A DNA stretch of 64,000 nt, taken from an uncultured Solirubrobacterales bacterium. GTDB lineage: Bacteria; Actinomycetota; Thermoleophilia; Solirubrobacterales; JBBDJG01. The position numbers were made by a program, and so were the translations under genes. Every line of letters starts with the position of its first letter. Position 1 is the stretch's first letter. Where the stretch lies: positions 1,374,465-1,438,464 of the forward strand of contig CAWFMD010000006.1 of the NCBI GenBank assembly GCA_963816975.1. The letters run 5' to 3'. The notes beneath the pieces were generated by a model. That model made no database searches, had not been told where the DNA came from, and worked only from the letters and a program-made list of their open reading frames with translations. Positions 2,736-61,803 of this stretch are shown here, in pieces.

Positions 2736-4940
2736 TCAGGAACGCTTGCGGCGGCGCCGCGCTCGGCGCAGGCGACGCGCGACACGCGCCGCCTCGCGCC
2801 GGTTCGCAGCCGGTGCGATCCGCACCGCGAGGCCCACCCGCCGGAACCTGCGCTGGTGCGCCAGCTGCACGGCGAGCGTGGGCCCGGGCCGGGGCGCGGA
2901 GGACTGCGCCTTCGGCCTCAGGATGTGCGCCGTGGCGCGCGGGCGCGCGCCGGTGGGCACGACCACGTACCCGGTCTCTTCGCCGGCGAGGTAGAAGTAC
3001 GCGACGTCGCGCAGGGATACCTGGCGCCGTTTCCGCTGCGGCTCGGCCAGCGTGACCCGGCGGCCGCCGCGCATCACCGCCTCCACGCGCGCGGTCTTGC
3101 CCCACGAGGGAAACATCACGTCAACCGTGTACCGCGCCCGGATGCGGCGCATCACGGCCCAGCGCGTCTCCACATGGCTCGGCGTGAACTTGTGCGTGGT
3201 GTCGATCACGACCTCGCGCGATTCCCGGCGGCCTTTCGCGACGAGGCTCTGGAAGGGCCCGGCGTATGGCCGGGCCGGATACGCCGGTGCAGCCGCCACC
3301 CGCCCCCGCGGTGAGGACAGCAGCGTGATCGGCGGGATCGGCGGCGCCACGGACCGCGGCCGCTGGGACGTGGCGATCTCCTGCTCACCACTGCGCACCA
3401 GCACGCCGAAGCTCGCCCACGGCCGGCCGCCCACGTTGGACACCACCCGCTGGTCGCCGTCATAGAGCCGGCACAGCTCCGTGCCGCCGTAGGGGAAGGC
3501 TCGCTGGTTGACCGGCACCACGGCGGTCGAGTAGCGCGGCGTGGTGATCGACAGGCGCCCGATGTCGGCATCGAAGGAGTACAGCGCAGGCGGCTCCTCG
3601 CCGCCCATCTCGCCCAGACCCAGCGCGATCGCGCGCGCCGCGTTCGCCTGCATGCGGGCGGCGAACAGCTCGCGGATGCTCGGGCCGAGCGGGGCGACGT
3701 TCACGTCGTAGAGGTTGGAGGGAGCGATCCCCTTCGCGTCGGGCGCCTCGCGCGAGAGCCGCTCGTACAGGCCGAGGCCGCGATCGAACATGTACTTCGC
3801 CCATGACCCGATCTCGGACCGGGCGTGAAAGCGCGGCGCCACGGCGATCGCCAGCAGTCCCTGCTGCGCGAGCGCCCAGGTGCGGCCGGCGTGCCAGCGC
3901 TTGAATCCGTAGCCGGTGTCCCAGTTCAGGTAGCCGCCATGGGTCCAGTAGGCGCACACGATGTGCTCGACCCAGGCCCGTAGCAGGCGGTAGTGATCGG
4001 GATGCAGCAGCGGCATGCCCGCGCGCACGGCCTGCTCGTGGTAGAGGATGAAGTGGCAGGTCTCGCTCGCATATTCGGCGCTGTCCACGTTGAACGGATG
4101 AGTCGGGGCCCGGTGGGGCAGATAGTGGAACCTGTAACCCGGCCCGAGGTTGGGCGAACCGCCCGGCGTGAGCGCGCGCGGGATGCCGTCGCAGAAGCGC
4201 GTCACCTGGGCGCGGTAGTCGTTGACGAGCAGCTCCGTGTCGCCCGTGATGCTCGCCGCATGGGCGTACAGCTCGCAGTTCCAGTTGACCTGGTTGAGGC
4301 GCACGTTCGGGAAGCGGAAGAACGGCCCGCGGGCGGCGCGGCTGACGCGGTCCGCGATCATGTCCACCGTCTCCTGCGGGAGTCGCAGCACGTCGCGTGC
4401 TCGCCACGCGTAGACGAGGGCCTCCGCAACCTTCGGATCGATCGACTTGTCCATCGCCGAGTCGCGGGTCCCGAGGCTCTCGACCCAGCCGGGGTTGTGG
4501 AACTGCGAGTCCCCGTCCGGCGACGCATCGCGCTCGCTCCACGGGGGCGACTCGCAGAGCCGCCGCGCGAGCGCGGCGGCGCGGCCGTCGTTGCGCGTCG
4601 GACCGACGTGGCCCGCGAGCGCGGCCACGGCGTGGGTCGTGAGCAACAGGGCGTTGTGGTAGATGCGGCCGACGGTGCTGTTGCCCGAGCCGTAATGCGA
4701 CCTGTCGTCCAGCCACAGGCCGTCGAAGTACGGTGCCAGCCAGTCCGCGAAGCGCCAGTAGTCGGCTGCCTTCAGCGGGGGCCGCGGGAGGCCGGGCGGA
4801 ACGAGGGCGCGATGCTCGGCTGCGTGGAACCCGAACGCGGGAGCCGGGACTGCGCCCAGGCCCCCGAGCGCCGCCGCACCGGCGCCCAATTGCGCGGAGC
4901 GCAGCATGAACTTCCTGCGTGTCAGCGATGGATCTGGCAT
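2736..4940 (-). CDS. Tat-signal secreted protein of unknown function (734 aa)
   Basis: N-terminus MPDPSLTRRKFMLRSAQLGAGAAALGGLGAVPAPAFG has a twin-arginine motif plus hydrophobic core. Coding-like composition throughout, with a very basic C-terminal tail (RRLRRARRRRKRS). Family not recognised with confidence. Confidence 0.75.
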   Translation of the reverse strand: MPDPSLTRRKFMLRSAQLGAGAAALGGLGAVPAPAFGFHAAEHRALVPPGLPRPPLKAADYWRFADWLAPYFDGLWLDDRSHYGSGNSTVGRIYHNALLLTTHAVAALAGHVGPTRNDGRAAALARRLCESPPWSERDASPDGDSQFHNPGWVESLGTRDSAMDKSIDPKVAEALVYAWRARDVLRLPQETVDMIADRVSRAARGPFFRFPNVRLNQVNWNCELYAHAASITGDTELLVNDYRAQVTRFCDGIPRALTPGGSPNLGPGYRFHYLPHRAPTHPFNVDSAEYASETCHFILYHEQAVRAGMPLLHPDHYRLLRAWVEHIVCAYWTHGGYLNWDTGYGFKRWHAGRTWALAQQGLLAIAVAPRFHARSEIGSWAKYMFDRGLGLYERLSREAPDAKGIAPSNLYDVNVAPLGPSIRELFAARMQANAARAIALGLGEMGGEEPPALYSFDADIGRLSITTPRYSTAVVPVNQRAFPYGGTELCRLYDGDQRVVSNVGGRPWASFGVLVRSGEQEIATSQRPRSVAPPIPPITLLSSPRGRVAAAPAYPARPYAGPFQSLVAKGRRESREVVIDTTHKFTPSHVETRWAVMRRIRARYTVDVMFPSWGKTARVEAVMRGGRRVTLAEPQRKRRQVSLRDVAYFYLAGEETGYVVVPTGARPRATAHILRPKAQSSAPRPGPTLAVQLAHQRRFRRVGLAVRIAPAANRREAARVARRLRRARRRRKRS

Positions 4941-5098
4941 CGAAGGCTGTGCAGCGGGCCGCGTGCTCAGGCTTGAACACGCGTGGGCCGGCGGCGGAGC
5001 GGTTTCCGGCCGGGTCTGCCCCGACAGGTTGTCAGGCCCGACGGGCGGCCGCGCCGCCGCGCAATAGCGTCGGGCGCGGCCCTTATGGTGACAAGGTC

Positions 5099-6529
5099 AT
5101 GGCCAAGCCTGTCGCCAGCTTCGCATGCACCGCCTGCGGCCAGGCCAGCCTGCGGTGGATGGGCCGCTGCCCGGGGTGCGGTGAGTGGAACACCCTGGTC
5201 GAAGAAAAGGCCGCCGATCGGCAGGCCGATCGGCGGGTTCGCGCTCGGGACCCGCGCGCATCGGGACGCCGGCGCGCGGCCGAGCCGCGCAAGCCGGTCG
5301 TCCTCGCCGACGTCGAGAGCGGCGCGGCCGACCGCCTGCGCACGGGCAGCGACGAGCTCGATCGTGTGCTCGGCGGCGGCCTCGTACCAGGCTCGGTCGT
5401 GCTGATCGGGGGCTCGCCCGGCATCGGCAAGAGCACCCTGATGAGCGCCGCCCTGGCGAACATCCAGGCCGCCGGCGCACGCTCGCTCTACGTCAGCGGC
5501 GAGGAGTCCGCAGCCCAGGTGAAGCTGCGCGCCGAGCGGCTCGGTCCCCATGCACTGGGCGTCCCGGTGCTGGCCGAGACCTCGCTCGAGGTGGTGCTCG
5601 CGTCGCTCGAGCAGGAGCGCCCGCAAGCTTGCGTGATCGACTCCGTGCAGACGCTCTGGTCGGCCGAGCTGACCGGCGCTCCGGGCAGCGTGGGACAGGT
5701 GCAGGAGGTCGCCGCGGCGCTCGAGCGCTTCGCCCGCGCGCACGGCTGCGCCATGATCCTGGTGGGCCACGTGACCAAGGAGGGCACCCTCGCCGGCCCG
5801 CGCGTGCTGGAGCACGCCGTCGATTGCGTCCTGCAGTTCGAGGGCGAGCGGGAGCGGAGCTTCCGGACGCTGCGCGCGCTGAAGAACCGCTTCGGGTCGA
5901 CCAACGAGATCGGGGTCTTCGAGATGCGCGCGGGGGGCCTCGACGAGGTCGCCGATCCCTCCGAGCGCTTCCTGCGCGATGCGGAGCCGGTGCCCGGTTC
6001 CTGCGTGCTCTGCGCGATGGAGGGCACGCGTCCGCTGCTGGTCGAGGTCCAGGCCCTGGTCGCACCCACGGACGTCGCGCCCCCGCGGCGGGTCGCGAAC
6101 GGCATCGACCGCAACCGGCTCAGCATGATCCTGGCTGTGCTGGCGCGCCACGGTGGGCCGTCGCTGGGAGCCGCGGACGTCTTCGTGAACGTGGCCGGTG
6201 GCGTCCGCATCGAGGAGCCCGGGGCCGACCTCGCCGTGGCGCTCGCGATCACGTCCGCCGCACGCAATGAGCCGCTCTCGGGCGGCGGGTCGCAGTCCGG
6301 GTGCTTCGGCGAGATCGGGCTGACCGGCGAGCTGCGCTACGTGGCCCATGCCGACCGGCGGCTGGAGGAGGCGGCGCGCTTCGGCCTCGAGCGGATCTTG
6401 CTCCCCGCGCGCTGCGGGGACGACGAGCTGCCGCCCGCCCGGAGGGCCCTGGCGGTGCCTGCGCCGACCCTCGCGCAGGCGCTTGCAGCGGCGCTCGGGA
6501 GCGGCGCGGAAGATCGCCGCGCGGCCTGA
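5099..6529 (+). CDS. radA: DNA repair protein RadA/Sms
   Basis: C4 zinc ribbon (CTACG..CPGCGEW), RecA-like Walker A GGSPGIGKST, LKNRFGSTNE motif, Lon-like C-terminal domain. ATG 5099 (MAKPVASFAC) preferred over track start 4919. Confidence 0.95.
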   Translation: MAKPVASFACTACGQASLRWMGRCPGCGEWNTLVEEKAADRQADRRVRARDPRASGRRRAAEPRKPVVLADVESGAADRLRTGSDELDRVLGGGLVPGSVVLIGGSPGIGKSTLMSAALANIQAAGARSLYVSGEESAAQVKLRAERLGPHALGVPVLAETSLEVVLASLEQERPQACVIDSVQTLWSAELTGAPGSVGQVQEVAAALERFARAHGCAMILVGHVTKEGTLAGPRVLEHAVDCVLQFEGERERSFRTLRALKNRFGSTNEIGVFEMRAGGLDEVADPSERFLRDAEPVPGSCVLCAMEGTRPLLVEVQALVAPTDVAPPRRVANGIDRNRLSMILAVLARHGGPSLGAADVFVNVAGGVRIEEPGADLAVALAITSAARNEPLSGGGSQSGCFGEIGLTGELRYVAHADRRLEEAARFGLERILLPARCGDDELPPARRALAVPAPTLAQALAAALGSGAEDRRAA

Positions 6530-26535: not shown

Positions 26536-27102
26536 ATGGCCTCCAAGGCGCAAGAGAGTGGGTCGCCGGTGGACAAGGCGACCCTGGACCGCGACTTCTC
26601 CCAGTTCTACCGGGACCACCTGCGCGACGTCTACAACTACACGTACTACCGCACCGGCAACCACCACGACGCCGAGGATCTCACCACGCAGACGTTCATC
26701 CAGGCCTACCGGCACTTCGATCGCGCCCGCCGGGAGGCCCACGGCCGCCCCATGCGCCCGTGGCTCATCCGCATCGCCCACAACCTCGCGGCCAACTACT
26801 ACCGCGATCGCAAGCGCAAGCCTACGTCGGCGCTCGACGACGTCGAGGCGACGCTCGGGCAGCCACACGACACGGAGGACATCGTGGTCGGGCGCGAGGA
26901 GGCGGTGGCCGTGCTCAAGGGCGTGCAGTCACTGCCCGACGATCGCCGGGAAGCGCTCATCATGAGATTCGCGCTCGGAATGGACAACCGCGAGATCGCA
27001 CGCACGATGGGACGCACCGAGGGCGCCACGAAGGTGCTGATCCACCGTGCGATCAAGCAGCTCGAGCACGACCTGAAGCTGGAAGCGGGCGAGCAGGGCT
27101 GA
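26536..27102 (+). CDS. ECF-type sigma-70 family RNA polymerase sigma factor
   Basis: Region 2 (DAEDLTTQTFIQAY, WLIRIAHNLAANYYR) and region 4 HTH (REALIMRFALGMDNREIARTMGRTEGATKVLIHRAIKQL). Confidence 0.9.
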   Translation: MASKAQESGSPVDKATLDRDFSQFYRDHLRDVYNYTYYRTGNHHDAEDLTTQTFIQAYRHFDRARREAHGRPMRPWLIRIAHNLAANYYRDRKRKPTSALDDVEATLGQPHDTEDIVVGREEAVAVLKGVQSLPDDRREALIMRFALGMDNREIARTMGRTEGATKVLIHRAIKQLEHDLKLEAGEQG

Positions 27103-27687: not shown

Positions 27688-29019
27688 TTGACTGCGCTCC
27701 TCCTAGTCCTGCTGCTACTGCTGATCCTGCTGAACGGATTCTTCGTCGCTGCGGAGTTCGCGCTGGTTCGCGCACGGCGCACGCGCATGGAGGAGGCGGC
27801 GGGCGAGGGCTCGGGCAGCGCAAAGCGCGCGCTCCATCAGATGGACCACCTGAGCGAGTACCTGTCTGCCGCCCAGGTCGGAATCACGTTCACGTCGATC
27901 GGGCTCGGTTTCCTCGGTGAGCCGGCGATCGCGAGCTTGCTCGAGCCGGCGCTCGGTGGCGCCCTGGGCCACGGCGCGTCCGTCGCGATCTCCGTCGCGA
28001 TCGCCTATCTGTTCGTCACGTCTGCACACGTGATCGTCGGTGAGCAGGCGCCGAAGATGACAGCCATCACCCATGCCGAGCGGATCGCGCGCTTGTGCGC
28101 CCGTCCGCTGGAGTGGTTTCGGATCGGTCTCCACCCGGTCATCTGGGTGCTCAACAACGCGTCGAACTTCGTCGTCAAGCGGATCCTGCGAATCGACGTC
28201 GAGAGCGACGGCGAGGCCGCCACCGCCGAGGAGCTGCGGGTGCTGATCGGGCGCGGCGAGCGCTACGGTGAGCTCGACCCGAACGAGGCGGGCATGTTGG
28301 AGGGCGTGTTCCACCTCCACGAGCAGGAGGCGCGCCAGGTGATGACCCCGACGCCGGCGCTGGTAACCGTGAACAGCGAAGACACCGTCGAGACCGGACT
28401 GCGGCGCTGCATCACGTCCGGTCACACACGCCTGGTGGTGATCGAGGACGACAATGCGGATCGCGTGCGCGGAGTCGTGCACTCCAACCGCTTGGCGCAG
28501 ATCTTGATCGGCGAGGGACCGGAGGCGCCGCTCGCGCCGCTCGTGCGCGAGCCGCTGATCATGCCCGAGACGAAGCCGCTCGACGACCTGCTGGCCGACA
28601 TGCAGCGCCAGCGGACGTCGCTGGCCGTGATCGTCGACGAGTTCGGCCGCACGGCCGGGATCGTCACGATCGAGGACATCATCGAGGAGATCGTGGGGGA
28701 GATCGTCGACGAGACCGACCCGATGCTGTCATCGATCCGCCGCCTCGTGAACGGCGACTGGTTCGTGCGGGGTCATGTCTCGCTGGGCGACCTCGAGGAC
28801 GCCGGCATCCGCCTGCCCGTCGACTCCGACGCCTACACCTCGGTGGGCGGATATGTGTTCGGCCAGCTCGGGCGCCTGCCAAAGCGCGGCGATCAGATCA
28901 GCGCCAACGGGTACCTGATTCGCGTCGAGTCGGTGCGGGAGAACCGGGTCGAGGCGGTGCGGATCCACCCGACGGCGCCCGCGGCCCAGGGCCGCAGCGC
29001 GGCCCCGCGGGAGCCCTGA
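27688..29019 (+). CDS. CNNM/CorC/TlyC-family transporter-associated protein (DUF21-CBS pair-CorC_HlyC)
   Basis: LLNGFFVAAEFALVRARRTR (DUF21 start), CBS pair region, C-terminal CorC_HlyC-like domain. AGGAG lies 4-5 nt before TTG 27688. Confidence 0.9.
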   Translation: MTALLLVLLLLLILLNGFFVAAEFALVRARRTRMEEAAGEGSGSAKRALHQMDHLSEYLSAAQVGITFTSIGLGFLGEPAIASLLEPALGGALGHGASVAISVAIAYLFVTSAHVIVGEQAPKMTAITHAERIARLCARPLEWFRIGLHPVIWVLNNASNFVVKRILRIDVESDGEAATAEELRVLIGRGERYGELDPNEAGMLEGVFHLHEQEARQVMTPTPALVTVNSEDTVETGLRRCITSGHTRLVVIEDDNADRVRGVVHSNRLAQILIGEGPEAPLAPLVREPLIMPETKPLDDLLADMQRQRTSLAVIVDEFGRTAGIVTIEDIIEEIVGEIVDETDPMLSSIRRLVNGDWFVRGHVSLGDLEDAGIRLPVDSDAYTSVGGYVFGQLGRLPKRGDQISANGYLIRVESVRENRVEAVRIHPTAPAAQGRSAAPREP

Positions 29020-29046
29020 CCGCCGCCACTGCGGTTCCGCGAGTCC

Positions 29047-29065
29047 GTCCGCAGGCCTCTCTAGC
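29047..29065. repeat. Left arm of a 19-nt inverted repeat (GTCCGCAGGCCTCTCTAGC)
   Basis: Reverse complement of 29417..29435 with one mismatch. The arms bracket the small ORF 29113..29421. Confidence 0.7.
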
Positions 29066-29112
29066 TTGGCGGGCGTTGATCCTATGCCGACCCCGGGGGT
29101 GGCCTCAGGCCC

Positions 29113-29421
29113 ATGTGGTGCGCACGCTTCACCGATAGCCAGCTGGAGACCCTGAAGGATCTGATCCGGATCCAGGGAGAGATCGGTTCCGACCTCGAGG
29201 GCGCCCTGGAGGCTTTGGAGCTTGCCCGCTGGGACGACCTCCCCGAGGCGCAGCTTCCGTGGCCCCAGGTGATCGAGCTGGCCCAGCGCCAGGGCATCAG
29301 CGAGGCGGACGTCGTGTGGGACATGTCCGGGCGCCGCAAGGAGCCGGCCGCCCCGCGCGTGCGCAAGGCACGCAAGCCCGGGACGCGGGCGCCCAAGCGA
29401 GCCCGCAAGGCCGCCGGCTAG
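29113..29421 (+). CDS. Small hypothetical protein: acidic helical N-part with Lys/Arg/Pro/Ala-rich basic tail
   Basis: 102 aa, mostly high third-position GC. Tail RRKEPAAPRVRKARKPGTRAPKRARKAAG. No family recognised. Confidence 0.5.
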   Translation: MWCARFTDSQLETLKDLIRIQGEIGSDLEGALEALELARWDDLPEAQLPWPQVIELAQRQGISEADVVWDMSGRRKEPAAPRVRKARKPGTRAPKRARKAAG

Positions 29422-29435
29422 AGACGCCTGCGGAC
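29417..29435. repeat. Right arm of the 19-nt inverted repeat (GCTAGAGACGCCTGCGGAC)
   Basis: Pairs with 29047..29065 (18 of 19 positions). Contains the TAG stop of the small ORF. Confidence 0.7.
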
Positions 29436-29465
29436 TACGCAGATCCGGCGCCGCATGAGCCGTCC

Positions 29466-30305
29466 TCAGTAGTCGTAGAAGCCGGCGCCGGACTTGCGGC
29501 CCAGGCGCCCTTCGCCGACCAGTTCCTTGACGCGGCCGGGAGGCCGGTGCGCGGCGTCCCCCGTGTCCGCGTAGAGCGCCTCGCCGATTGCCGCGGCGAC
29601 GTCGATGCCGATCAGGTCCAGCAGCTGGAGCGGGCCCATCGGGTGCGAGGCGCCGAGCCTCATGCAGGCGTCGACCTGCTGCGGCTCCATTCCCGTGCGC
29701 TCGAGCAGCCGGACCGCGTCGAACAGGTACGGGAAGAGCAGCCGGTTGACCACGAATCCCGGCTCGTCGGGCACCTCGACGGGGGTCTTGCCGATGGCCT
29801 CGCAAAAGGCCGTCGCGCGAGTCCGCACCGGCCCGTCCGCGGTCGCGGGGAAGCACAGCTCGACGAGCTTCATCCTGGCCACCGGGTTGAAGACGTGCAG
29901 GCCGAAGAATCGCGCCGGGTCACCGCTCACGTCCGCAAGCCGGCCGATGCCGAGCGAGGACGTGGTCGTGGCGAGCAGCGCGTGGGGCGCCAGCAGGGCG
30001 CGCAGGGAGGGGAGCAGCTCGTGCTTCAGCGCCGGCTGCTCCGCGACCGCCTCGACCACGAGTGTCGCGTCGGCAAGCACATCCCGGTCAGTCGTGACGG
30101 TCAGCTGCTGTCCGTGCCTGTGGCTCAGGGCCTTGCGCGCGCGCCGTGCCGAGTCATCGCTGCGGGCCCACATCACGACGTCGCCGCCGTGTCCCATCAC
30201 GCAGGCCGCAAGCCCGCATGCGATCGTGCCCGAGCCCACGATGGCCACGCGCTCGGGAAAGGTCTGGAAGGCCGTGCCGCGGTCGCCCGCCCCTGGTTGA
30301 CTCAT
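29466..30305 (-). CDS. 3-hydroxyacyl-CoA (3-hydroxybutyryl-CoA) dehydrogenase
   Basis: VAIVGSGTIACGLA Rossmann motif, central HVFNPV block, C-terminal GRKSGAGFYDY. Confidence 0.9.
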   Translation of the reverse strand: MSQPGAGDRGTAFQTFPERVAIVGSGTIACGLAACVMGHGGDVVMWARSDDSARRARKALSHRHGQQLTVTTDRDVLADATLVVEAVAEQPALKHELLPSLRALLAPHALLATTTSSLGIGRLADVSGDPARFFGLHVFNPVARMKLVELCFPATADGPVRTRATAFCEAIGKTPVEVPDEPGFVVNRLLFPYLFDAVRLLERTGMEPQQVDACMRLGASHPMGPLQLLDLIGIDVAAAIGEALYADTGDAAHRPPGRVKELVGEGRLGRKSGAGFYDY

Positions 30306-50199: not shown

Positions 50200-51062
50200 T
50201 GGGACGCCGCCGCCGGGTGCGCGTGCCCGGCTCGTCGGCGAACCTCGGGCCCGGCTTCGACGCGATGGCCGCCGCCGTGTCGGTCCACCTCGAGCTGGAG
50301 GTCGAGGAGACCGGCACGTTTGCCGTGGACCCCGGCGACGCCGGGCTGCCCGCCGGCGCGGACAACCTGTGCGTGCGCGCGTTCGCGCAGCTGCATCCCG
50401 TCGACGGCCTGAGCTTCAAGGTGCGCTCGGAGATCCCGCTGGAGGCGGGCCTGGGATCGAGCGGCGCGGCGATCGTCGCCGGGCTGGTGGCGGCGGACCA
50501 CATGTACGAGCTCGCGCTGGAGCGCGACGAGCTGATGGGCCATGCGGCCGCGGTCGAGGGGCATCCCGACAACGTGGCCGCGTCGCTGTATGGGAGCTTT
50601 GTGATCTGCGCGAACGGATCGGTCACGGTGATCGAGCCACCGGCGGGGCTGGAGGCGGTCGCGGTGGTGCCCGCCGAGGCGGTGCCGACGGGCGCGGCCC
50701 GTGCAGCGCTCCCCGACCAGGTGCCGCTGGCGGACGCGACTTTCAACGTCGCGCGGGCGGCGACGCTGGCACTGGGGCTTGCCCGCGGCGACCTCGCGGA
50801 GATCGCGCGCGGCCTCGACGATCGCCTGCACCAGCCACACCGGCGGCGGCTCTACCCGCGGTCGATGGAGCTGGTCGAGCGCGCGGCCGAGCTGGGCGCG
50901 CTGGGTGCCACGATCTCCGGCGCCGGCCCGAGCGTGCTGTTCTGGGTGTTCTTCGAGCAGACCGGCGCGCTCGTGGAGCGGCTCCGCGCGGAGGTCGATG
51001 GCTGGGCCGACATCCGGCGGCTCAACTTCGTCGCGCTGGGCGCGGACGTCGCCGAGCTGTAA
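50199..51062 (+). CDS. thrB: Homoserine kinase
   Basis: VPGSSANLGPGFD and GHMP kinase motif PLEAGLGSSGAAIVAG. ATG 50199 overlaps the thrC TGA by 1 nt. Confidence 0.9.
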   Translation: MGRRRRVRVPGSSANLGPGFDAMAAAVSVHLELEVEETGTFAVDPGDAGLPAGADNLCVRAFAQLHPVDGLSFKVRSEIPLEAGLGSSGAAIVAGLVAADHMYELALERDELMGHAAAVEGHPDNVAASLYGSFVICANGSVTVIEPPAGLEAVAVVPAEAVPTGAARAALPDQVPLADATFNVARAATLALGLARGDLAEIARGLDDRLHQPHRRRLYPRSMELVERAAELGALGATISGAGPSVLFWVFFEQTGALVERLRAEVDGWADIRRLNFVALGADVAEL

Positions 51063-51080: not shown

Positions 51081-51119
51081 GTGTGCAGATGAGCGCGCAT
51101 AGCGCGCTCATCTGCACAC
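51081..51119. terminator. Perfect 18-bp-stem hairpin (GTGTGCAGATGAGCGCGC-ATA-GCGCGCTCATCTGCACAC) between convergent genes
   Basis: Lies between the thrB stop (51062) and the stop of the convergent SDR gene (51119-51121). No U-tract on either side. Confidence 0.55.
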
Positions 51120-61268: not shown

Positions 61269-61347
61269 GGCGGCATCCACCCGCTATCTGGAGCCGGGTC
61301 GCGCGCGCGGGCCCCGTTCCGTCGGGCGTCCTTCCTATGTTTGCGGC

Positions 61348-61803
61348 ATGTCGCTTTGTTTCATGGAGCCCGCCGAGGCGATTCGGGTGATCGCGGAGTC
61401 CATCGGCCGCGAGGCGCGGCGCGCCCTGCTGGCCGCGGTGATCGAGTCGTGGGTCGACGACATCCCCGAGCACGAGCTCGCCCAGCACTACGCGAAGGCG
61501 GTCAGCGATCTCGACCACGAGGATCTTTCGATGCTTGCGGCCTGGCACGCGACGCTCGAGGTTGGCACTCCCGTGCCGAGCCCCGAGTTCCTCGTCGGTG
61601 TCTTCGACGGCCTCGGCGAGCACCGGCGCGACGTGCTGAAGCTGGCCGCGCGCTTCCGCGGGGACGAGGCGTTCCTGGCCGGCGTCGGGGAGGAGGAGGC
61701 GCTTGACATCGTGTTGCCGTGGCTCTCGCACGAGCGGCTCGAGCACCTCTGCGCCAAGGCTCTGCAGATCTACGTCGACGACCGCATCGGCGGCCAGAAC
61801 TAG
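61348..61803 (+). CDS. Acidic cytoplasmic hypothetical protein
   Basis: 151 aa, helical, coding-like composition. No family recognised. The start could be 61363. Confidence 0.5.
   Translation: MSLCFMEPAEAIRVIAESIGREARRALLAAVIESWVDDIPEHELAQHYAKAVSDLDHEDLSMLAAWHATLEVGTPVPSPEFLVGVFDGLGEHRRDVLKLAARFRGDEAFLAGVGEEEALDIVLPWLSHERLEHLCAKALQIYVDDRIGGQN

Follow-up and report, generated by a model that had tools for sequence, protein, structure and literature searches.

A 64,000-nucleotide (nt) stretch of the genome of an uncultured Solirubrobacterales bacterium (contig CAWFMD010000006.1, positions 1,374,465 to 1,438,464; hereinafter, the window) contains a 102-codon gene that is enclosed by a 19-nt inverted repeat. 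The left arm of this repeat is, with high confidence, the promoter core of the small gene, conserved across the class Thermoleophilia, and judging from its motif, it is fairly likely that this promoter is of the type controlled by PafBC, the mycobacterial activator of DNA-damage genes. The right arm is present in this genome only; its sequence indicates that it probably arose by copying of the promoter rather than by chance, and it is likely to be neutral, without a function of its own. The two arms are not a functional pair, and the repeat is real but an ordinary by-product.

The repeat was first noticed in a sequence-only reading of the window, and its geometry was borne out. The two 19-mers, GTCCGCAGGCCTCTCTAGC (29047-29065) and GCTAGAGACGCCTGCGGAC (29417-29435), are complementary at 18 of the 19 positions, with 351 nt between them. 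They enclose the open reading frame (ORF) 29113..29421, the TAG stop codon of which lies inside the right arm, and the neighbors are those that had been named, a CNNM/CBS/CorC_HlyC transporter gene (27688..29019, + strand) and a convergent 3-hydroxyacyl-CoA dehydrogenase gene (29466..30305, - strand). No further copy of the 19-mer is found within the window at up to 2 mismatches. The proposed extension of the match to AGTCC is weak, given that a 4-nt gap is needed for a gain of only 1-4 matches; the left side carries a tandem GTCCGTCC, and the right side carries one GTCC only. What did not hold from the same reading is the orphan status of the ORF, its interpretation as a mobile cassette, and the pairing of the arms as a functional unit.

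Conservation of the left arm upstream of the small gene

A scan of one genome per species yielded 103 loci, of which 80 were kept and are denoted by L numbers; with extras, the comparison covers 81-83 related loci. The 80 loci belong to Solirubrobacterales, Thermoleophilaceae or metagenome-assembled genomes of Thermoleophilia, and the gene order, namely, CNNM transporter, small gene, convergent dehydrogenase and thiolase, is kept in nearly all of them. The pattern TTCCGTCCG-N10-TAnnnT is located at a fixed spacing upstream of the small gene in 79 of the 81 related loci, and the sequence (T)TCCGTCCG followed by a TAnnnT hexamer is found in 81 of 82 loci. The distance between GTCCG and TA is exactly 10 nt in 79/81 relatives as well as in the window. 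In a position matrix built from 78 unique sites, information is present only in TTCCGTCCGC and TA(g)(c)TT, and there is essentially none in the 10-nt spacer; GTCCG is conserved at 97% or above, and the -35 positions carry ~0-0.2 bits. A scan with the sigma-70 consensus detected no -35/-10 promoter. Among the closest relatives (alignment A2, consisting of the window and the seven nearest loci), GTC(T/C)GTCCGCAGGCCTCTCTAGCTTGG is near-invariant although the synonymous sites of the ORF have diverged (pS ~0.36).

The conserved element can be identified as a promoter because the end of the hexamer is only 7-11 nt away from the start codon in 15 loci, which points to leaderless or near-leaderless mRNAs, and because L002 and L007 carry a clean deletion of the 33-nt leader that leaves both the box and the hexamer untouched. 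The GTC of the box lies ~27 nt upstream of the predicted transcription start, and the left arm corresponds to about -27 to -9 of the predicted promoter (Table 1). Being located upstream of the start, the arm would be (mostly) absent from the small gene's own mRNA. The fold of the leader is no better than that of shuffled sequences (z = +1.75), and an Rfam scan of positions 28500-30000 produced zero matches.

The leader type varies inside the family, with a ~40-nt leader that includes a Shine-Dalgarno sequence in some loci versus leaderless genes in others (L002, L006, L007, L008 and 11 more). Upstream of the CNNM gene, the window encodes an ECF-type sigma factor (26536-27102; assigned from the Sigma70_r2/r4 domains of the L081 orthologue) that is syntenic in the closer relatives. 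This gene has no evident link to the small-gene promoter, the -10 element of which is of the housekeeping type.

Likeness to PafBC promoters and co-occurrence with radA

In mycobacteria, a WYL-domain activator turns on DNA-damage genes by inserting between the DNA and region 4 of the sigma factor: PafB reads a GTC triplet and PafC contacts sigma region 4, a mode denoted 'sigma adaptation', and the in-vivo consensus of the PafBC promoters is tGTCgg(N10)tA(N3)T, with the two parts at -28..-23 and -12..-7 and no -35 element (Mueller et al. 2021, PMC8635444). Promoters of this class, also denoted RecA-NDp, are known from mycobacteria and other Actinobacteria. The small-gene promoter shares with them a GTC ~27 nt upstream of the start, the identical spacing of the 6-mer, N10 and TAnnnT, and the lack of a -35 element. 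Other common features are the many members with leaderless transcripts and the occurrence of the motif before the DNA-repair gene radA in the same genome and clade. The differences are that the box is (T)TCCGTCCG, not tGTCgg, and is far more invariant than the published consensus; that the host belongs to the deep-branching class Thermoleophilia; and that the downstream gene represents a family without an assigned function. Literature searches on promoters or PafBC in Thermoleophilia returned no match.

Within the window, GTC[CG]G-N10-TAnnnT occurs three times, in all cases on the + strand and directly upstream of a start codon (Table 1), versus 0-1 matches for control spacings of 6-15. One of these sites precedes radA, which encodes a protein with a zinc ribbon, a RecA-like ATPase domain and a Lon-like C-terminus. 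The radA start codon lies 9 nt past the hexamer, which implies a near-leaderless mRNA. In four other Solirubrobacterales contigs (L106-L109, positions ~1440-1503; 67-82% identity), radA is preceded by the same arrangement, GTCG(G/T)-N10-TAA..T, 9 nt and ATG, so that this promoter class appears to be conserved in the clade on a classical DNA-repair gene. The third site in the window has the second-best score under the promoter model (12.7 bits) and lies upstream of a 151-aa ORF with zero matches in Pfam or PADLOC, which makes a second candidate for a DNA-damage-inducible protein without a family.

Downstream of radA are disA and carD, as in other Actinobacteria. The 151-aa ORF is flanked by a CvpA/trypsin-like protease gene and a convergent gene for a HAD hydrolase.

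The box could also be genuine but read by a regulator other than PafBC. Such a regulator might be an alternative sigma factor or a WYL activator paralogous to PafBC, or the small protein might act on its own promoter. We consider this alternative unlikely, albeit serious because the box differs from those of radA and because its CGTCCG form is confined to the small gene: CGTCCG-N10-TAnnnT has no other occurrence in the ~720 kb of the window and related loci. The fourth base is C in the small-gene box versus G at the radA sites, and TTCCGTCCGC varies far less than the positions given in lower case in the PafBC consensus. However, the position of GTC and the spacing are identical to those of the PafBC motif, and radA carries a site of this motif in the same genome. 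Binding by the small protein itself would be compatible with a helix-turn-helix-like pair that is confidently predicted at its C-terminus (residues 50-72). Yet, the core of the family is strongly acidic (net charge -10), which is unusual for a DNA binder, most members have no basic tail, and searches of Pfam and NCBIfam and with Foldseek gave no match to a DNA-binding domain. Provided that the promoter is of the PafBC type, an activator of this type would switch on a small acidic protein after DNA damage by sigma adaptation, and we infer that the small gene would belong to the same regulon as radA.

The right arm within a private 44-nt insert

The right arm is absent from all 83 related loci (L001-L081, L110 and L111). 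In the closest relatives (L081, L110, L111, L001, L002, L004 and L007), the convergent stop codons are 5-12 nt apart versus 44 nt in the window, and the 44-nt segment that carries the right arm is lacking even in L081, with 95% protein identity to the window, and in L110 and L111, which belong to the same 90% identity cluster. In none of the 80 genome loci does the complementarity that brackets the ORF rise above background (best scores 6-13 versus 16 in the window). The right arm opens with GCTAG, five bases that represent the ancestral last codon plus stop. These are followed by 14 new bases, AGACGCCTGCGGAC, of which 13 agree with the reverse complement of 29047-29060. The stop codon (29418-29421) and the promoter (29061-29064) share the palindrome CTAG, and the junction falls exactly there.

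These observations suggest a route for the emergence of the right arm. During replication, the template would be switched at the shared palindromic CTAG: a nascent strand ending in CTAG could re-anneal at the promoter, with ~14 nt then copied backwards. The result resembles quasi-palindromes produced by template switching, in which a short inverted copy of a nearby sequence lies within a lineage-specific insertion; a 4-nt palindrome (CTAG) is present at both donor and acceptor, and the copy is near-perfect (13/14). It differs from typical hairpin-templated events in that the donor is farther away, at ~350 nt, and the mechanism is deduced from sequence alone.

The chief competitor of copying is pure coincidence in a G+C-rich sequence. 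The G+C content of the window is 70%, and one or more 19-nt inverted repeats (at most 1 mismatch, within 1 kb) turned up in 11 of 40 shuffles of the window that preserved dinucleotides, so that, taken at face value, the repeat is not beyond chance; indeed, the real window contains five distinct repeats under the same settings, and complementarity at 5 of the 19 positions (GCTAG) predates the insertion. Only when it is taken into account that the right arm lies within a lineage-specific insertion does the repeat stand out from random expectation: random 44-nt inserts placed at this position gave an 18/19 repeat with the flanking 500 nt on either side in 1 of 3,000 trials. Given this figure and a junction located exactly at a CTAG palindrome that is able to prime a template switch, coincidence appears improbable.

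If the right arm is a backward copy, is it functional? On the minus strand, the arm reads GTCCG-N10-TAGCCG, with the triplet and the N10 spacing retained. It has neither the final TT of the -10 element, with the near-invariant last T gone, nor the conserved TTCC flank, and with these missing, the inverted copy is most likely inert. Moreover, the right arm reproduces the spacer that is not conserved in the family, which is a sign of copying, not of selection for binding.

A functional right arm would be a second activator site, a weak antisense promoter directed into the ORF, or a DNA-looping site, and in either form would tune the expression of the small gene after DNA damage in this strain. 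Consistent with such a role, the minus strand keeps GTCCG, the exact N10 and TA, its rank under the promoter model is 404 of 127,924 positions (within the top 0.3%), and such a site is very unlikely as a chance by-product of a random insert (1/3,000). Against it, the arm has TAGCCG in place of the -10 hexamer and lacks the TTCC flank, its score is 45 bits below that of the true site (-11.4 versus 33.5 bits), no other genome has the arm, not even those of relatives at 90-95% protein identity, and the match extends to the non-conserved spacer, as it would in a copy. We therefore regard a function of the right arm as quite doubtful. The suggestion that the arms are paired operator sites thus stands for one arm, the left one, which is a promoter/activator site; the two sites are not conserved as a pair, and the right one is degenerate.

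At most, the right arm could be part of a 3' hairpin between the convergent genes. The insert may add hairpin potential in this region: the inserted CGCAGATCCGGCGCCG is similar to 29483-29498 read as the reverse complement (14/16), a likeness that is compatible with chance because words of the CCGGCGCCG type recur throughout the window. Hairpins within 29438..29498 compete with the long-range pairing and are not significant (z of -1.6 and -1.8). An intrinsic terminator between the convergent genes was considered and rejected, given the lack of a G+C-rich hairpin followed by a U-tract; a scan of 29400-29520 detected no terminator-like site and no U-tract.

Two other repeats in the window were noted. 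A G+C-rich 19-nt inverted repeat with one mismatch (4571-4589 and 5044-5062, 454 nt apart) has a right arm that ends 6 nt upstream of the radA upstream element and is probably a chance occurrence because of its low-complexity composition (GCGGCGGCGCGGCC). A perfect 18-bp hairpin, GTGTGCAGATGAGCGCGC-ata-GCGCGCTCATCTGCACAC (51081-51119), without a U-tract, lies between two convergent ORFs and begins shortly past a TAA at 51060-51062; its probable role is that of a bidirectional terminator or a binding site.

Mobile cassette and RNA clamp

In the sequence-only reading, the arms were also taken as possible terminal inverted repeats, with the ORF as the cargo of a miniature mobile cassette. The geometry alone speaks for this interpretation, with 19-nt inverted arms ~390 nt apart around a single ORF, as in miniature inverted-repeat transposable elements (MITEs) or insertion sequences (IS). 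The comparison of orthologous loci refutes it: the ORF and the left arm are in place and syntenic in 83 of the 83 related loci, none of which has the right arm. Unlike MITE or IS insertions, the segment shows no target-site duplication (the flanks are CGAGTCC on the left and TACGCAG on the right) and no presence/absence polymorphism, and there is no other copy of the arm or the insert in the window. One arm is an ancient, fixed promoter, and the enclosed gene is chromosomal and vertically inherited. Furthermore, the G+C content is the same as in the flanks, without a compositional break. The chance that the locus is a mobile cassette is, in our estimate, close to nil. The 44-nt insert itself has no match longer than 12 nt elsewhere in the window, and with no repeat of it found there, its identification as a repetitive extragenic palindromic (REP) or MITE element was rejected. 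A scan of public metagenomes with a 17-mer from the right arm produced 24 matches, all in unrelated contexts and none encoding the small protein.

Another proposal was a long-range RNA clamp around the ORF. For this, the arms would have to pair in a read-through transcript from the CNNM gene, and the clamp would then limit translation or stabilize the RNA. In silico, this pairing does form: when 29040-29470 is folded as one RNA, the arms are paired in both the minimum-energy and the centroid structures (z = -2.06), and there is no terminator after the CNNM gene. However, the pairing is conserved in no relative (80 loci, with the scores given above), the left arm belongs to the promoter and lies before the transcription start of the small gene itself, and the right arm can instead form a local hairpin with the 3' end of the dehydrogenase gene. 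In addition, ribosomes would open a 350-nt clamp across a translated ORF. We find the clamp very improbable.

A narrow family of small acidic proteins

Far from being an orphan, the small protein has more than 2,000 homologues in addition to the 80 genome loci. The homologues are ~100 aa long, with 69-95% identity, and all are unnamed or annotated as 'hypothetical'; those with a named source come from Solirubrobacterales. The family is nevertheless narrow, given that a profile search of 1.84 billion cluster representatives retrieved 92 clusters only. The conserved features are the start MW.(A/V)(R/K) and a core of ~72 residues that includes LELARWDDLP.A.LPW and QGISEADV.WD. The small gene is under purifying selection, as judged from its sequence divergence among eight close relatives (pN/pS of 0.16 in the core and 0.29 in the tail).

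The acidic body and the basic tail noted earlier are both evident, with 15 D/E versus 5 K/R in the core and 13 K/R within the 30 residues of the tail. The comparison of this tail to those of histones was not upheld: it is a clade-specific appendage, rich in Lys and Arg, that is present in 24 of 81 loci (~30%), most members of the family being 75-81 aa long. A nucleoid or histone-like protein was accordingly rejected, given a tail that is not constant and no match to a known nucleoid-protein domain in Pfam, NCBIfam, PDB or with Foldseek.

Searches of Pfam, NCBIfam, PHROG and PADLOC with the small protein gave zero matches, and a profile search of the Protein Data Bank (PDB) returned noise only. 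An initial AlphaFold2 model from a shallow alignment was poor (pLDDT 62.6). The model obtained with 85 sequences consists of four helices, of which only the last two (residues 50-72) are confidently predicted (pLDDT 74.7, pTM 0.39), and Foldseek found no match to it below E = 0.1 in PDB and BFVD.

By its apparent restriction to Thermoleophilia and its annotation as hypothetical, the family is reminiscent of the 32 listed signature proteins of Thermoleophilia (Hu et al. 2019, PMC6544083). At 75-105 aa, it is also close in size to several of the listed markers (79, 82 and 90 aa). A difference is that distant relatives of the family are also present on phage-like contigs.

Several peculiar members and spurious matches of the family were noted. 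In L024 (4001-4351), the copy of the small gene diverges fully after about residue 50 and extends to 116 aa, with the promoter box intact; this is most simply a frameshift, due to a sequencing error or in a pseudogene. L027 and L028 are contigs of a single metagenome-assembled genome (MFD03066.bin.2.151), and the locus is present on both, with an identical small protein and promoter, which suggests a duplicated region or redundant contigs in the bin. In the protein clusters P0165, P0167, P0190, P0192 and P0197, the CBS/CorC_HlyC C-terminus of CNNM is joined to the small protein in one frame; these may be genuine fusions, or they may reflect gene-calling errors or frameshifts on short contigs. 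The matches to the long repeat proteins P0171, P0195, P0206 and P0210 were dismissed as spurious, arising from low complexity.

Distant homologues on phage-like contigs and the possible role of the protein

The weakest significant profile hits share only a C-terminal module, AR..DLP...L.W..V..EA.RQGIS.ADV.WD..G (P0186, P0204 and P0207, with E = 2.4e-7, 1.0e-4 and 1.8e-4, respectively, against the whole library). The contigs that encode these distant homologues are phage-like, with a cI-type repressor next to divergent small genes, an endolysin and a RusA-like resolvase. Two of the homologues directly follow an exonuclease gene, to which they would be translationally coupled by the overlap with its stop codon, and another one follows an endonuclease VII gene pair (Table 1). 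A tblastn search of 50,697 phage genomes (INPHARED) found nothing, and a scan of viral contigs (IMG/VR) found no relative.

The adjacency to the exonuclease is a second, independent association with DNA metabolism. Combined with the promoter class, the phage nuclease neighbors make control of a nuclease or of recombination after DNA damage the leading guess for the role of the small protein. More specifically, it is possible, although we put this forward only tentatively, that the family consists of DNA-damage-inducible Thermoleophilia proteins under PafBC-type control that would modulate an enzyme of recombination or a nuclease, for instance, by acting as acidic mimics of DNA. An analogy can be drawn with DinI, a small DNA-damage-induced modulator. 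It lies in the small size (75-105 aa), the strong acidity and the position behind a DNA-damage-type promoter. The two differ in that there is no sequence or structural similarity between them and that some members of the family carry a basic tail, which DinI does not have.

Table 1 Features of the small-gene locus, PafBC-like sites in the window and distant homologues of the small protein
Feature	Position	Strand	Remarks
Upstream box TCCGTCCGC	29044..29052	+	Holds the '-26 element' GTCCG (29047-29051); information peak; matches the tGTCgg part of the PafBC consensus
Left arm of repeat	29047..29065	+	-26 element, 10-nt spacer and first 4 nt of the -10 hexamer; (near-)invariant in close relatives
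-10 hexamer TAGCTT (TAnnnT type)	29062..29067	+	Predicted transcription start ~29073-29075
Predicted 5' leader, ~40 nt	29073..29112	+	Shine-Dalgarno-like GGGGGTGG at 29095-29102; kept in the close clade
Small protein gene, 102 aa	29113..29421	+	Acidic core with four predicted helices (residues 1-72); basic tail shared by some members only
Right arm of repeat	29417..29435	.	First 5 nt, GCTAG, ancestral coding plus stop; next 14 nt inserted
44-nt segment between convergent stop codons	29422..29465	.	Private to this genome
Local imperfect hairpin	29438..29498	.	Inserted CGCAGATCCGGCGCCG pairs with CGGCGCCGGACTTGCG in the 3' end of the dehydrogenase gene
GTCGG-N10-TATGGT	5069-5089	+	9 nt before the ATG of radA (5099..6529)
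Small-gene site	29047-29067	+	45 nt before the ATG
TTCCGTCGG-N10-TATGTT	61321-61341	+	6 nt before the ATG of the 151-aa ORF (61348..61803)
Distant homologue	L113 1582-1872		Directly after a phrog_284 exonuclease gene; overlaps the exonuclease stop codon
Distant homologue	L115 4001-4285		Directly after a phrog_284 exonuclease gene; overlaps the exonuclease stop codon
Distant homologue	L112 3001-3279		6 nt past a metallophosphoesterase and endonuclease VII pair

Weight of the evidence and implications

In its entirety, the interpretation of the left arm as a PafBC-like promoter core and of the right arm as a private, inert backward copy is one in which we have moderate confidence. Several points weigh against it. 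The small-gene box is GTCCG with an unusually invariant TTCC...CG flank, versus GTCGG at the radA sites. Template switching accounts for only the first 14 of the 44 inserted nt, and 18/19 repeats are not uncommon in shuffles of the whole window. With GTC and N10 retained, the right arm may weakly bind an activator. Finally, the fold of the small protein is unmatched (pTM 0.39; no Foldseek match in PDB or BFVD).

The interest of the locus is moderate and lies in the promoter class and the small gene; the repeat itself is ordinary. It is of little consequence and is best read as a private mutational scar, although the case shows that a promoter copied backwards can give rise to an apparently striking repeat. 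Current knowledge is not overturned by any of these findings. What the comparison does provide is a precise promoter model, TTCCGTCCG-N10-TAnnnT, for Thermoleophilia, an abundant but barely cultured class of soil bacteria, and this model suggests that the mycobacterial PafBC 'sigma adaptation' operates in these bacteria too. A conserved, unannotated family of small proteins is flagged as a likely member of the DNA-damage response, with independent support from the link to phage exonucleases. Should the small protein indeed be a DNA-damage-inducible modulator, the PafBC regulon and its mechanism would be extended to a deep-branching actinobacterial class, and a new family of effectors would be added to it.

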